Below are positions 25,194 to 50,116 of a DNA stretch of 64,000 bases, piece by piece. The number at the start of each line of letters is the position of its first letter. The stretch's first letter is position 1. The DNA comes from Spirochaetia bacterium (GTDB lineage Bacteria > Spirochaetota > Spirochaetia > UBA9216): assembly GCA_963675665.1 (NCBI GenBank), contig OY776510.1, forward strand, positions 512,001 through 576,000. Reading direction: 5' to 3'. The notes under the pieces are model-generated. The model did not search any database. It was given only the letters and a program-made list of their open reading frames with translations, and was not told the origin of the DNA. Both the position numbers and the translations under genes were made by a program.

Positions 25194-25277
25194 GCCGGCG
25201 TGGTGAAATTGGTAGACACAGCAGACTCAAAATCTGCCGGGGGCAACTCTGTATCGGTTCAAGTCCGATCGCCGGTA
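25194..25277 (+). tRNA. tRNA-Leu(CAA)
   Basis: GCCGGCG acceptor, anticodon arm GCAGA-CTCAAAA-TCTGC, long variable arm, GGTTCAAGTCC T-arm. CCA not encoded. Confidence 0.96.
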
Positions 25278-40890: not shown

Positions 40891-41724
40891 ATGACGGAAG
40901 AAGAACTTTTAAATGTAGAAAAACTCAAAGCAGAGATAAAGAGATTAAAGGGTATAAAAAAGACCCTGCGACGCAATTTTCAGGATATGGTAGGACTGCT
41001 GACCACGACTATTTCACAGTCAAATAATTTTCTCGGCGGTCATATAAAAAGAACCGCAGTGCTTGCAAAAGCATTTGCGGAATATATGAGATATGACAAA
41101 GACACTATATATCGAATCTATTACGGGGCGCTGCTTCACGACCTGGGAATGGTAGGCCTTCCGGAAAAGCTGATTATTTCTCCGGCAGAATCGCTTTCGG
41201 AAGCGGAAACTGAACTTTTCAGACGTCACACGCTTATCGGCGAAAAAATGATCTCTTCAGCCTATGACTTGCGCCAGACAGCAAAGATTATCCGAAGTCA
41301 CCACGAAGAATTCAGTGGCGACGGTTTTCCCGACGGTCTTGCCGGCTCGGAAATACCTCTGGGAGCAAGAATAACAAGGCTATCAAACGATTACGACAAT
41401 TTCATATATAAAAACAAGATTCAGGCGACCGAAGCTGTTAAACGCCTTAAAGAAAGATCAGGCTATATTTACGACCCAAAATTATGTACGTATTTTATCA
41501 AATTCATTAAAACCAATGTTGAAAAACATGATAATGCATCCGAATCCACCGGAATACTGCTCCGTGATCTTAAAAAAGGAATGTATATCTCGGAAGATAT
41601 ATGCCTTCAGAACGGAATGCTACTTATTCCGAAGGGAGTAATTCTGGACAGTTCGATGCTGGATAAAATCAATTCGTTTGAATCACTGCTTGAAATGGAC
41701 CGTATTGTTTCAGTAGTCGGTTGA
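40891..41724 (+). CDS. HD-GYP domain protein
   Basis: LLHDLG, HHE-FSGDGFPDGL and IPLGARI motifs. Confidence 0.85.
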   Translation: MTEEELLNVEKLKAEIKRLKGIKKTLRRNFQDMVGLLTTTISQSNNFLGGHIKRTAVLAKAFAEYMRYDKDTIYRIYYGALLHDLGMVGLPEKLIISPAESLSEAETELFRRHTLIGEKMISSAYDLRQTAKIIRSHHEEFSGDGFPDGLAGSEIPLGARITRLSNDYDNFIYKNKIQATEAVKRLKERSGYIYDPKLCTYFIKFIKTNVEKHDNASESTGILLRDLKKGMYISEDICLQNGMLLIPKGVILDSSMLDKINSFESLLEMDRIVSVVG

Positions 41725-41808
41725 TTACCAAATATGGGAACCTCTGATATGATGTGACCCATGTCAAGTTAAAATATCCAGGTTTTATCTATAAGATCCC
41801 CCCCCTGT

Positions 41809-42007
41809 CCAGGACAGGAAGAAAGATAGAACAACGTTTATGCGGCGATAGACCACTCTGATATTCGCGGATTGGTTACCGCAGGTCAATGGGATCGTCG
41901 GGAGCTGCCTCTGTCTAAAACCGAGGATCAATATTATTATTGCCTCATAGAGGTGCCGAGGGTTCTCCTTTATCACTGTTGTTGTTCTATCCATCCTTCT
42001 GTCCTGG
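41809..42007 (-). ncRNA. Putative bridge/seek RNA of the IS110 element
   Basis: Nested inverted repeats enclose two loops carrying ACCTCT and GGTTTTAGA (target) and ATTG and ATATCAGA (donor). Ends are approximate. Confidence 0.75.
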
Positions 42008-42031
42008 TAGCTTATTAACCAACTATCGAAG

Positions 42032-43135
42032 TCATGCGACTTCTGTTCTACCTACCATCATTCCCCAAATAAATCCTGATAATTCTCTGGCAACTGCCGT
42101 AACAGTTTTCTGAGGGCATACCCCTCTACGAATCATCCTGAAATATTTCTTACTCAACCTTCTGCCGGCTTTATCAGCATAAGCTATTGTTTCAGCAGAT
42201 TGTCCTTTCCTTCTCGCTGTCAGTCGTTTCGATGGCGAATACCTTTGGTAATGCCAGCTTGATTCCACTAACAGCCGTCGTAGCCTGGAGTTGCCGGCCT
42301 TCGTAATCCCGCCAAGCTTCCGGCCCTCTCCGCTTGAGTATTCTGACGGCACAAGTCCAAGATACGCCATGAAGGATTCCGCTTTTTTAAATCTTCTGAA
42401 ATCTCCTATCTCGCATACAAATGTTAATGCTGTTAATGTCTCTATACCTTTGAAACATCGAAGCCGGGATACCCTTTCTTTATATCTGTCTTCAGCAGCA
42501 ATCTCTTCTATTTTTTCCTGCAACCGTTCAATCTTTTCCTCTAATTCCACAATCGCAAGATAATATTCTTTTAAAACTTCTTTATGCATTACCTGTTCAA
42601 ACTGCAAGTTTTTCAACCAGGTTCGATGCGCCCCTGTCCAGTACTTTTTCCCAATATCATATTTCTTCCCGTTCCTTAGCAGAAACTGTAAGAGCCTCTG
42701 TTTCTGTTTCCTCAAATCAATTTTCATATCGTTACACATCCTCATGTAATCACGAACTGATTCATCTGTGCGTGTCGGTATATTCACCGGTGTTATTTCC
42801 TGATTCCTTAATGCTCTGGCTAATTTGACTGCATCCCTCTTGTCTGTCTTTATTCGGTCTCCGGGTTTCCTCGGCAATAATGATGGTGCTGCTACGTAAC
42901 AGATAATTCCCATATCTTCAAGTAATCTATAAAGTGTAAATCCTGTAGGGCCTGCTTCGTAACAACACAGAATATTTTCTCCATTCTCTTTAAGTCGCTT
43001 GAAGAATCTTTTAATATTTCCGGGTTCGTTCCTGAGCTCTCTTTCAAACTCAGGATTCTGATAATTATCTCTGAATACCGCTACTGCGATTGATTCCTTG
43101 TGGACATCCATCCCTACATAAATTACACTATTCAT
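42032..43135 (-). CDS. IS110 family recombinase/transposase
   Basis: DEDD domain (VGMDVHK, YEAG, KTDKRDA) and GLVPSEYSSG...ITKAGN. GGAGG RBS. Confidence 0.96.
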   Translation of the reverse strand: MNSVIYVGMDVHKESIAVAVFRDNYQNPEFERELRNEPGNIKRFFKRLKENGENILCCYEAGPTGFTLYRLLEDMGIICYVAAPSLLPRKPGDRIKTDKRDAVKLARALRNQEITPVNIPTRTDESVRDYMRMCNDMKIDLRKQKQRLLQFLLRNGKKYDIGKKYWTGAHRTWLKNLQFEQVMHKEVLKEYYLAIVELEEKIERLQEKIEEIAAEDRYKERVSRLRCFKGIETLTALTFVCEIGDFRRFKKAESFMAYLGLVPSEYSSGEGRKLGGITKAGNSRLRRLLVESSWHYQRYSPSKRLTARRKGQSAETIAYADKAGRRLSKKYFRMIRRGVCPQKTVTAVARELSGFIWGMMVGRTEVA

Positions 43136-43236
43136 AGTGGCCTCCGTTCCTTTGTATGTGGCGTGTCTGCGCTTTGCCATTAGCCATTGTGTAGGCTAAT
43201 CCACGATTTTGCAAACACGGCGGTCACTTCATATTG

Positions 43237-43276
43237 TCTAAAACCCCCAATTTAGGGTTTTTAGAGGTCTCCATAT
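43237..43276. repeat. Right part of the REP-like palindrome interrupted by the IS (left part at 41732-41745)
   Basis: ATATGGGAACCTCT plus AAAACCCCCAATTTAGGGTTTTTAGAGGTCTCCATAT forms an imperfect hairpin of about 22 bp. Confidence 0.8.
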
Positions 43277-43314
43277 ATTATTAATTCGATATAATAAAAA
43301 AAAGGATTTTGACA

Positions 43315-45084
43315 ATGTTGTGCGAAATATGTGAATTTGAATGTGATATTCCTGAAAAAGGTACCGGAAAATGCGGAATGTATGAAATAAGAAATGGAGT
43401 CATACAGGAGAGATATCCTGATATGTATCTTATTTCAGTACCCGCCCCAATTGAAGCAATGCCTTTGCTGCATTATTATCCTAATACAAAATTCCTGCAG
43501 GTATGTACTATCGGTTGTAATTTCCGTTGCACCGGATGCGTTTCGTGGCTGTTAACGGAAAATGCCGAATCCATTGATGGAGTAATTGAGACAATAAGTC
43601 CTGATCAACTTATAAAGAAAGCTCTTGATCAGGGATGCTCCGGAATAATGTTCTGCTTTAATGAACCGGCGGTTTCCTTCTTCACTTTTAAGAGAACGGC
43701 AAAACTTGCAAGAGAAAAAGGCCTTTTCACAGGATGCGCTACAAACGGTTATTTTACGGAAAAATCTTTCGTGGAGCTTCTTGAGTATATTGATTTCATT
43801 AACATCGGGTTAAAAGGACATTCGGATAAAGCTTATAGAATTCACGGGGCCTTATCATATAAGCCCATATACCGGAACCTTGAGCTCAGTATAAAAAGCA
43901 AAGTTCATACCGAGGTTTCCCTGGTATATATAAAGGGAATGGAAGATGAAGTCATTGAAACAGTAAAACATATTGCTTCCATATCAAAAGAGACTCCTGT
44001 ACAGCTTATGCGATTTCTGCCCCTTTGCGACACTGATTATGATGACGAGCCTTCAATTAAAGAAGCAGAAATACTTTGTGACGAATTAAGGAAACTACTT
44101 GATTTTGTGTATCTGTTTAATTCCCCCGGCACCGAGTATCTAAACAGTGATTGTCTCCGTTGCGGCAAGCCGGTAATAAGAAGGGGGTTCAACGGCCCCA
44201 TGAACTCAAACGTGACTGAGACCCGGGAAGAAGCGATCTGTGAATGCGGTTACGGCCTGCCGATTAAGGGACAAATCTGCAAGGATAACGGACTGGAGGC
44301 CCTGGGGTTTTCCGGCGGATACAAGAATATAATGGCCCTTGAATTTATTCGGATAATTCTGGCGTTTCTGGGAGAGAACAACAGCAGTACGATAAGCAGG
44401 GTTCTGCTTGAAATAATCAAAACCGATTATATTAAAGACCTGTATTCCAGAATGAAAAAACCGGGAACATATCTCGATACAGTAGATCATTATGCAAGGC
44501 TGGCAGGCAGAGAAAAGGAAGCAGGGAATTTAAGAGCTTTTATTGAAGAAAATGTTGCGGAAATATCTGCTCAGGTTTTAAAAGCAGAAAATCCCCGTGT
44601 ATTTTTTGCTCTTAATCATCCCCTTATAGCTGTTTTCGGGGATAAATTTGACTGCAACCTTGTCGAGATTGCCGGAGGATACAACCTGAACAAGGACATA
44701 AAGCGCGAAGAAATACCGGGAGTGATGATTCCTGTTGAGACGCTAAATAAACTCAACCCCGAAATAATACTGGTATCCGGATCAAACGGGTATCCCGCTT
44801 CGGACGTTTATTCGTTCTATATTGACAAGGGAATGACAGCGGATGCAGTAAAAAACAAAAGAATATACAATGTTCACCCCTATAATACATCGGCTTCCCC
44901 TGACTGGATATTGGGATTAATGTATATTGCCAATATCATTCATCCTGAAATATTCAGTTTCGATCTCGAAAAAACAGCAGATCAGCTTTATCAACAACTT
45001 TTCGGAATCAATTATGATACATTGAACCATAACAGAAGCTTTGACGTATTACGCCTGGAAAGAATAAAAGCGGTACAAAAATAA
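43315..45084 (+). CDS. AmmeMemoRadiSam/PflA-like radical SAM enzyme fused to a periplasmic-binding-protein-like C-terminal domain
   Basis: CEICEFEC...GKCG, GCNFRCTGC, FNEP and TNGY motifs. C-terminal EIAGG...LNPEIIL...AVKNKRIY...ANIIHPEIF. Confidence 0.82.
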   Translation: MLCEICEFECDIPEKGTGKCGMYEIRNGVIQERYPDMYLISVPAPIEAMPLLHYYPNTKFLQVCTIGCNFRCTGCVSWLLTENAESIDGVIETISPDQLIKKALDQGCSGIMFCFNEPAVSFFTFKRTAKLAREKGLFTGCATNGYFTEKSFVELLEYIDFINIGLKGHSDKAYRIHGALSYKPIYRNLELSIKSKVHTEVSLVYIKGMEDEVIETVKHIASISKETPVQLMRFLPLCDTDYDDEPSIKEAEILCDELRKLLDFVYLFNSPGTEYLNSDCLRCGKPVIRRGFNGPMNSNVTETREEAICECGYGLPIKGQICKDNGLEALGFSGGYKNIMALEFIRIILAFLGENNSSTISRVLLEIIKTDYIKDLYSRMKKPGTYLDTVDHYARLAGREKEAGNLRAFIEENVAEISAQVLKAENPRVFFALNHPLIAVFGDKFDCNLVEIAGGYNLNKDIKREEIPGVMIPVETLNKLNPEIILVSGSNGYPASDVYSFYIDKGMTADAVKNKRIYNVHPYNTSASPDWILGLMYIANIIHPEIFSFDLEKTADQLYQQLFGINYDTLNHNRSFDVLRLERIKAVQK

Positions 45085-49648: not shown

Positions 49649-49832
49649 TATCTTCACTCCATAATTTCCTGATATAAAAATAAAAAACATTTCTTTTTCT
49701 GCCTGAGGGTTTTAGATCAACCCACCCTAATCCGTCACCGGAAAAAAATGAGACAGTGAATAAAGAACAGAGACAATTCGATATAATATGGATAAAAAAT
49801 AATGACTAAGAGCTGTCTATATACATTCAGAA

Positions 49833-49928
49833 TCTCCTTTCCAAACACGGGAGGCTATGTCGTTTCCAACAGAACCCTATCGACGCAAGATCCATGGTGT
49901 AACCGGTAGGACGCAAGCGCTCGGAGTT
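49833..49928 (-). ncRNA. Moco RNA motif riboswitch, short P3-less (Tuco-like) form
   Basis: Minus strand ACUCCGAGC...CCUA...AUGG...UAGGGU-UCUGUUG-GAAA-CGACAU-AGCCUCCCGUGUUUGGAAAGGAG matches the hallmark Moco consensus segments as recalled. Confidence 0.85.
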
Positions 49929-49939
49929 ATTACAAATAA

Positions 49940-50042: not shown

Positions 50043-50116
<74 letters not shown>

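Follow-up and report, generated by a model that had tools for sequence, protein, structure and literature searches.

A probable IS1111-group insertion sequence with a candidate bridge RNA encoded 3' of its recombinase gene in a Spirochaetia bacterium

The recombinase gene and its product

The 64-kb stretch of DNA analysed here (the window) contains a gene that encodes an IS110-family DEDD recombinase, together with a structured region on its 3' side and the two ends of an insertion sequence (Table 1). The gene appears in the list of open reading frames and their translations as 367 codons on the minus strand, running from 43135 to 42032. Both Pfam domains, PF01548 (E = 2.7e-13) and PF02371 (E = 3.5e-22), are present in its product, which reaches 240 bits against a cut-off of 140 with the NCBIfam model NF033542 'IS110 family RNA-guided transposase'. 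Among solved structures, IS621 (chain 8wt6_A, E = 2.2e-10) and ISCro4 were the only sequence matches, and residues D10, E60, D98, D101 and S268 align with the DEDD and Ser positions of IS621, where the roles of these residues have been described (PMC11208158). In an alignment of 26 homologues, E60, D101, S268 and G269 are invariant and D98 is nearly so, and every invariant column of the alignment is kept by the copy in the window. A structure model built from the 26 homologues has a pLDDT of 86.5, with residues 264-280 around the SG motif disordered, and its best 10 structural matches are all full-length matches to IS621 or ISCro4 chains, with E-values of 2e-13 to 3e-12 and TM-scores of 0.47-0.61. 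The motif GL-P----S(t)G, which is characteristic of the IS1111 group (PMC11187229), was found in the C-terminal domain as G260-L-V-P-S-E-Y-S-S268-G269.

Table 1. Features of the element and of its insertion site, with positions numbered from the first letter of the window.
Feature	Position	Strand	Remarks
Insertion sequence body	41746..43237	minus	1,492 bp; 1,494 bp including one core copy
Left end, start in gene sense	A43237	minus	junction read from sequence
Right end, stop in gene sense	C41746	minus	junction read from sequence
Core AG in gene sense (CT on + strand), left junction	43238..43239	minus	AG in 44/44 tabulated elements
Core AG in gene sense (CT on + strand), right junction	41744..41745	minus	AG in 39/43 readable elements
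Left subterminal inverted repeat TATGAAGTGACC	43222..43233	minus	4 nt inside the end
Right subterminal inverted repeat GGTCACATCATA	41748..41759	minus	2 nt inside the end
Recombinase gene	42032..43135	minus	367 aa and stop; DEDD RuvC-like domain and Tnp domain
Putative catalytic residues	D10, E60, D98, D101, S268	recombinase	alignment to 8wt6_A; S268 inside GLVPSEYSSG
Bridge/seek RNA candidate	41809..42007	minus	about 199 nt, closing stem to closing stem; MFE fold
Conserved RNA core, both loops and stems	41843..41970	minus	family profile, E = 3.1e-31
Target loop, 5' strand GCACCUCUA	41948..41956	minus	complementary to gene-sense top strand T-AG-AGGT.C (core and flank past right end)
Target loop, 3' strand GUUUUAGACA	41912..41921	minus	left flank GTTTT, core AG, ACA
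Donor loop, 5' strand UCCCAUUGACC	41884..41894	minus	pairing of ATTG with positions 2-5 of the left end
Donor loop, 3' strand AAUAUCAGAGUG	41854..41865	minus	right end ATATC, core AG, AG
TTGACA, candidate -35 box of an end-joined promoter	41762..41767	minus	putative
Split hairpin, larger part (rest of proximal arm, loop, whole distal arm)	43240..43274	+	
Split hairpin arm, other part	41733..41743	+	9 nt after stop of HD-domain gene

Borders of the element and the insertion site

The borders were compared with those of relatives, which comprise at least 80 loci from a scan of a genome collection and whose proteins are 38-48% identical among the matches listed. Junctions in these relatives were located from the inverted repeats alone, giving 47 junction calls, of which L050, L057 and L069 were dropped for having no AG-type junction or an impossible length and L019 for having no match to the RNA profile described below; the element of the window was entered by hand in the junction table because its repeat scores 7/10 against a threshold of 8.

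Read in gene sense, the left junction of the window element is ...GGGGGTTTT-AG-ACAATATGAAGTGACC and the right junction is ...GGGTCACATCATATC-AG-AGGTTCC. Along the + strand, ...GGAACCT-CT-GATAT is met first, as the left junction, and ...ATTGT-CT-AAAACC second, as the right junction. The 'target' and the 'donor' are non-contiguous in the window: the former arises when the two flanks are joined, the latter when the two ends of the element are. The original prediction had given the core as TCT/CT, of which CT is upheld and TCT is not, the repeated unit in relatives being a dinucleotide; the third base of the 'TCT' is common to the first base of the element and the first base of the flank. At the right junction, the 43 readable elements carry AG in 39 cases, AA in two and AT in two. 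A spacing rule, in which the core is followed by 5 nt and ATG and, at the far end, CAT is followed by 3 nt and the core, is common to the 44 tabulated elements.

The 12-bp subterminal repeats match at 11/12 positions when the left is compared with the reverse complement of the right, and subterminal inverted repeats of 7-17 bp belong to the published definition of the IS1111 group (PMC11208160). The non-coding ends measure 102 nt on the left and 286 nt on the right, and in 44/44 tabulated relatives the right end likewise exceeds the left in length.

When the body and one AG are excised from the sequence, a hairpin of about 20 bp is rebuilt (fold z = -6.7), which begins 9 nt past the stop codon of an HD-domain gene at 40891..41724. 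The element has therefore split what is probably the terminator of this upstream gene. The distal arm of the hairpin holds a perfect 9-nt copy of the target, unoccupied and in the opposite orientation (43260-43268, +), because the target is a palindrome; it is the sole perfect copy left in the window. Insertion into hairpins as a habit of the family was considered and rejected, with only 4/31 rebuilt sites at z < -2 and the site in the window the strongest of the 31.

The RNA encoded 3' of the gene

An RNA-like structure starts 25 bases past the stop codon of the recombinase. In its outer stem, CCAGGACAG (42007-41999) and GATAGAACAAC (41991-41981) pair with GTTGTTCTATC (41835-41825) and CTGTCCTGG (41817-41809), and the MFE fold of 42035..41790 consists of a long closing stem and two inner arms (-76.5 kcal/mol, z = -2.59, 1/200 shuffles as good). 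This agrees with the original prediction, in which outer stems at these places enclosed two loops. When the RNA sequence of the window is used as the sole query, it matches most of the listed loci, down to E = 2.7e-17, and a 138-position profile of the core finds a match 3' of the gene in 74 of the 77 listed loci with at least 150 nt there, in addition to the window, where it has one match only.

The structure itself is conserved. Both hairpins and the first-loop stems are predicted by RNAalifold from an alignment of 38 sequences, and on the same alignment covariation was tested for 23 pairs in five helices taken from the window fold. Pairing is kept in 94.2% of 874 cells, as against 33-50% when the partners are slid by 1-3 columns, while compensatory change on both sides occurs at 13/23 pairs, with a covariation score that was reached by 0/500 shuffles. 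The strand of the RNA is fixed by frequent G-U pairs (columns 76/112 and 154/189), since these positions could not pair on the opposite strand. The closing stem is variable in sequence, yet its z is below -2 in 71/73 listed loci. An alternative register of the basal stem of the donor loop was rejected, as it fails in the window copy.

In Rfam 15, no family was found to match positions 41400-43500 (E up to 10), nor the RNA in a scan of the whole window, and nothing came near a gathering score; the two weak matches within 41400-43500 (E = 5 and E = 8.7) both lie on the other strand. A 69-codon open reading frame at 41785-41994 (minus strand) lies wholly inside the RNA region, and given the evidence for the RNA it is most likely not a gene. 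Directly after the closing stem there is a run of eight G (41797-41804, minus strand), which is not conserved in the aligned relatives. In one relative, L026, the RNA profile has an additional, incomplete match about 80 nt past the RNA core, covering the donor-loop half only (model positions 58-137, E = 3.3e-18), which may reflect duplication of half of the RNA or be what is left of another element.

Guide strands in the window and among relatives

The four loop motifs of the original prediction, ACCTCT (41954-41949), GGTTTTAGA (41922-41914), ATTG (41890-41887) and ATATCAGA (41864-41857), all on the minus strand, had been placed correctly. In the target loop, the match had been given as 6/6 and 9/9; it is present and exceeds chance, the 9/9 being an overcount that includes a stem base, G41922, and a shared base, A41914, which is common to the element end and the flank. 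As delimited here, the target loop has one mismatch, at flank position +5 (T-AG-AGGT, mismatch, C), and the ACA of its 3' strand is identical to the opening triplet of the left end, as a handshake-type guide would be. In the donor loop, the predicted ATTG and 3' strand do match, with the 5' strand being imperfect: it has one mismatch at left-end position 1, and a C faces the core G, so that it carries two mismatches beside the core. In the donor 3' strand, the core is followed by AG, the same two bases with which the right flank opens.

Could such short matches have arisen by chance in an AT-rich and partly palindromic region? The palindromic target does cause short words to recur near the junction, and ACCTCT is also found at 43268-43263, but the window guides score 4/5 and 5/5 on their own flanks and at most 3 on the flanks of other loci (38 and 36 comparisons), and no family-wide permutation in 10,000 reached the observed match. 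The match between guides and flanks in the window exceeds chance, and coincidence can hardly be credited as its source.

Covariation between guide loops and flanks, which had been proposed as a check, gave a positive result on the related elements. The loop strands of relatives were taken from the profile alignment, with positions in gene sense and mismatched pairs as the control, and flank tests that needed missing sequence left out elements at contig ends as well as L010 and L039, from which too little guide could be extracted. The target 5' strand matches right-flank positions +1 to +5 in 94, 92, 89, 75 and 67% of 36 elements, as against 25-32% for mismatched pairs, and the target 3' strand matches left-flank positions -1 to -3 in 100, 86 and 66% of 29 elements, as against 58, 33 and 24%; for each total, 0/10,000 permutations reached the observed value. 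At left-flank positions -4 to -6 no signal was found among the listed relatives, so part of the earlier 9/9 match may go unread by the RNA, and family-wide the guided target positions number only about 5+2+3.

For the donor loop, the 3' strand and the final five bases of the right end are identical in 42/43 elements (47/10,000 permutations), including four covarying variants in which both sides have changed (ATAAC, ATACC, ATCTC and ATGAG), and the 5' strand matches the first five bases of the left end at a mean of 3.38/5, as against 2.28 for mismatched pairs (0/10,000 permutations). Across 44 elements, both core bases are matched by the donor 5' strand in only three, with C-A facing the core in 27, whereas a full core match is usual in the remaining three guide strands.

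Handshake guides have been described for IS621 (PMC11208158), and the bases after the core in the 3' strands of both loops appear to behave like them. In the target 3' strand, the three post-core bases covary with the start of the left end (2/10,000 permutations), the first base being the main informative one, and in the donor 3' strand the post-core bases covary weakly with the right flank (448/10,000 permutations), with the signal in the first base only (46% vs 23%). As controls, the target-loop handshake bases gave no signal against the right flank (7,212/10,000 permutations reach the observed value), nor did the donor-loop post-core bases against the left end (4,503/10,000).

It might also be held that the conserved region acts as DNA, holding internal copies of the ends and binding sites for the recombinase, and the donor 3' strand, an exact copy of the right end and core, can indeed be read as a DNA repeat. 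This is very improbable, since the stems are maintained by compensatory changes and by G-U pairs, the latter valid on one strand only, and half of the guide strands are complementary rather than identical to their partners; moreover, RNAs of this region have been found to co-purify with the transposase and to be needed for transposition in four IS1111-family elements (PMC11187229).

Separately from these tests, very similar right flanks of the form CAG(G/C)CTG(T/G)TGAA... were seen in L018, L037 and L046, and loosely in L051. The hosts of these elements include an Alcanivorax, a Flavobacteriales and a Thermodesulfobacteriota genome, and the similarity of the L018, L037 and L046 flanks points to one conserved sequence serving as the target in distantly related hosts.

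Relationship to known systems

The layout in the original prediction, that of an IS110 bridge/seek RNA located 3' of the gene as in IS1111-like elements, agrees with published descriptions (PMC11208160; PMC11187229). Several features are shared with the IS1111 elements that encode a 3' RNA. The inverted repeats are subterminal, with a few bases beyond them at each terminus, the left end is short, and the RNA is encoded in a long right end; the GL-P----SG motif, site-specific insertion at a dinucleotide core and a -35-like box in the right end are likewise common to both. Two traits of IS1111-type elements, the placement of the RNA 3' of the gene and a top-strand match that comes before the bottom-strand one (PMC11187229), hold in the window element, where the guide complementary to the top strand stands 5' of the one complementary to the bottom strand. 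The protein differs from those of the IS1111 group in its length, 367 aa as opposed to 330-350 aa (PMC11187229), and the RNA is read here as a two-loop molecule of about 199 nt, whereas for ISEc11 and ISKpn4 RNAs of 82 nt have been reported to predominate, with longer forms also present (PMC11187229).

As in IS621 and ISCro4 (PDB 8wt6-8wt9, 9t56), which share the full-length fold and the aligned DEDD and Ser residues at an identity of about 20%, the RNA has one loop for the target and one for the donor; both strands round a CT core are read by each, and handshake-type bases come after the core. The RNA of IS621, however, is encoded in the left end, upstream of the gene and not downstream of it, and the direction of gene and RNA relative to the CT core is opposite to that in the window element. 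The subterminal repeat of 12 bp also contrasts with the 2-3 bp of the IS110 group (PMC11208160), and unlike IS621 the family of the window element usually mismatches the second core base in the donor 5' strand. Judged by the features of the element and the motif, assignment to the IS1111 group appears warranted, every IS110/IS1111 feature tested having been found.

Among IS1111-group elements, a 3' seekRNA has been tested in ISEc11, ISPa11, ISKpn4 and ISPst6 (PMC11187229), and bridge RNAs have been predicted for ISCARN28, ISAzs32 and ISPa11 (PMC11208160). Since 93% of IS1111 elements have a previously predicted bridge RNA (PMC11208160), the present element joins an already known IS1111 bridge/seek RNA system. 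Its metagenomic protein relatives are 70-77% identical. In a plasmid collection, the best protein match is a Leptospira 'IS110 family transposase' (47.2% over 98% of the protein) and the nearest named relative belongs to the ISEc45 family (43.7%), and at the DNA level only short stretches covering at most 14% of the query were found there. A stretch very similar to PSLLPRKPGDRIKTDKRDA of the window element, PSLIPRKPGERIKTDRRDA, is given for IS1533 in Supplementary Table 1 of PMC11208160, and the Leptospira plasmid matches may be IS1533. A 21-residue stretch of the recombinase does not occur in the available text of the PMC11208160 supplements. Among the sequences searched, the element appears to have no close named relative, the nearest being at most 47% identical.

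Proposed mechanism and state of the copy

It is very probable that the locus is a full-length IS1111-group (IS110 family) insertion sequence, whose long right end encodes a bridge RNA/seekRNA 3' of the gene. In the proposed mechanism, the RNA would fold into a long closing stem holding two internal loops. With GCACCUCUA as its 5' and GUUUUAGACA as its 3' strand, the target loop would read both strands of the insertion site round the CT core, and the donor loop, through ..CAUUGACC and AUAUCAGAG, would read the joined ends of the excised circular element round the same core. A DEDD/serine recombinase bound to each loop would then exchange strands at CT, so that the circle is inserted, and the post-core handshake guides, which match the other partner (ACA the left end, AG the flank), would favour this exchange. 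Strand exchange at the core, in which one loop binds the target and the other the joined ends of the element, has been described for related systems (PMC11208160; PMC11208158). By analogy with these, we infer that the RNA is expressed and processed, that it is bound by the recombinase, that a circular intermediate is formed, and that the element is currently active; the recombinase would presumably also be reprogrammable.

Joining of the ends would place the TTGACA of the right end upstream of the left end and could thereby create a promoter for the gene and, after it, the RNA. This TTGACA lies 22 nt from the right end, and a TTGAC is found 20-23 nt from the right end in 41/43 family members; junction promoters have been reported in the IS110 family (PMC12288879; PMC13626964). 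In the integrated state, no sigma-70-like promoter could be placed for the gene or the RNA (three sites, as against 4.3 expected by chance), and a scan of the integrated element for promoters and terminators gave nothing above chance.

These observations bear on whether the element, although correctly read as IS1111-type with a bridge RNA, is a resting or disabled copy whose guides and ends have drifted and which is immobile. Such a state would fit the guide mismatches (flank +5 and the two in the donor 5' strand), the integrated form without a promoter-like site for gene or RNA, and the single copy in the 64-kb window, where neither a repeat search nor the RNA profile found a further one. It would also fit the second recombinase copy (protein P0121) on the same 5.15-Mb contig, which is identical at 366/367 residues and differs by G281D at a column that is invariant in the 26 homologues. 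On the other hand, one or two guide mismatches are common in natural relatives, both in the family data and in PMC11208160, and silence when integrated, with expression from joined ends, has been described for relatives (PMC12288879; PMC13626964). The frame is open over all 367 codons with its invariant columns kept, and a second copy that differs by a single residue indicates recent copying. A disabled state is judged unlikely; the G281D change suggests that the copy in the window is better preserved than that of P0121, and at the level of sequence the element appears intact.

A broader proposal would join several of the family-wide observations. It holds that the relatives form one widespread clade across many phyla, in which a single RNA scaffold of about 130 nt stays nearly unchanged while the proteins drift to about 40% identity, about ten target positions are read (5 + CT + 3), and the second core base is systematically unpaired in one donor strand, making this a distinct, compact variant of bridge recombination. 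This proposal is doubtful as a whole; if it were true, with the scaffold interchangeable among distant recombinases and the unpaired core base setting direction or efficiency, the variant would be worth engineering.

Implications for annotation and use

The known workings of IS1111-type elements are unchanged by this analysis. What it provides is a natural IS1111-type bridge recombinase annotated to the base, with its ends, core, four guide strands, handshake bases and target, along with a family-wide rule for the loop positions that are actually read, which may serve as a starting point for testing this orthologue as a programmable recombinase. For annotation of the genome, the region 3' of the gene would be entered as an RNA gene in place of the listed 69-codon open reading frame, and the insertion as having split a hairpin that is the probable terminator of the HD-domain gene. 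Elsewhere in the window, a molybdenum/tungsten cofactor riboswitch is found at 49818-49938 (minus strand; 65.4 bits against a gathering score of 36), and tRNA genes lie at 25194-25277 and 50043-50116, both on the + strand.
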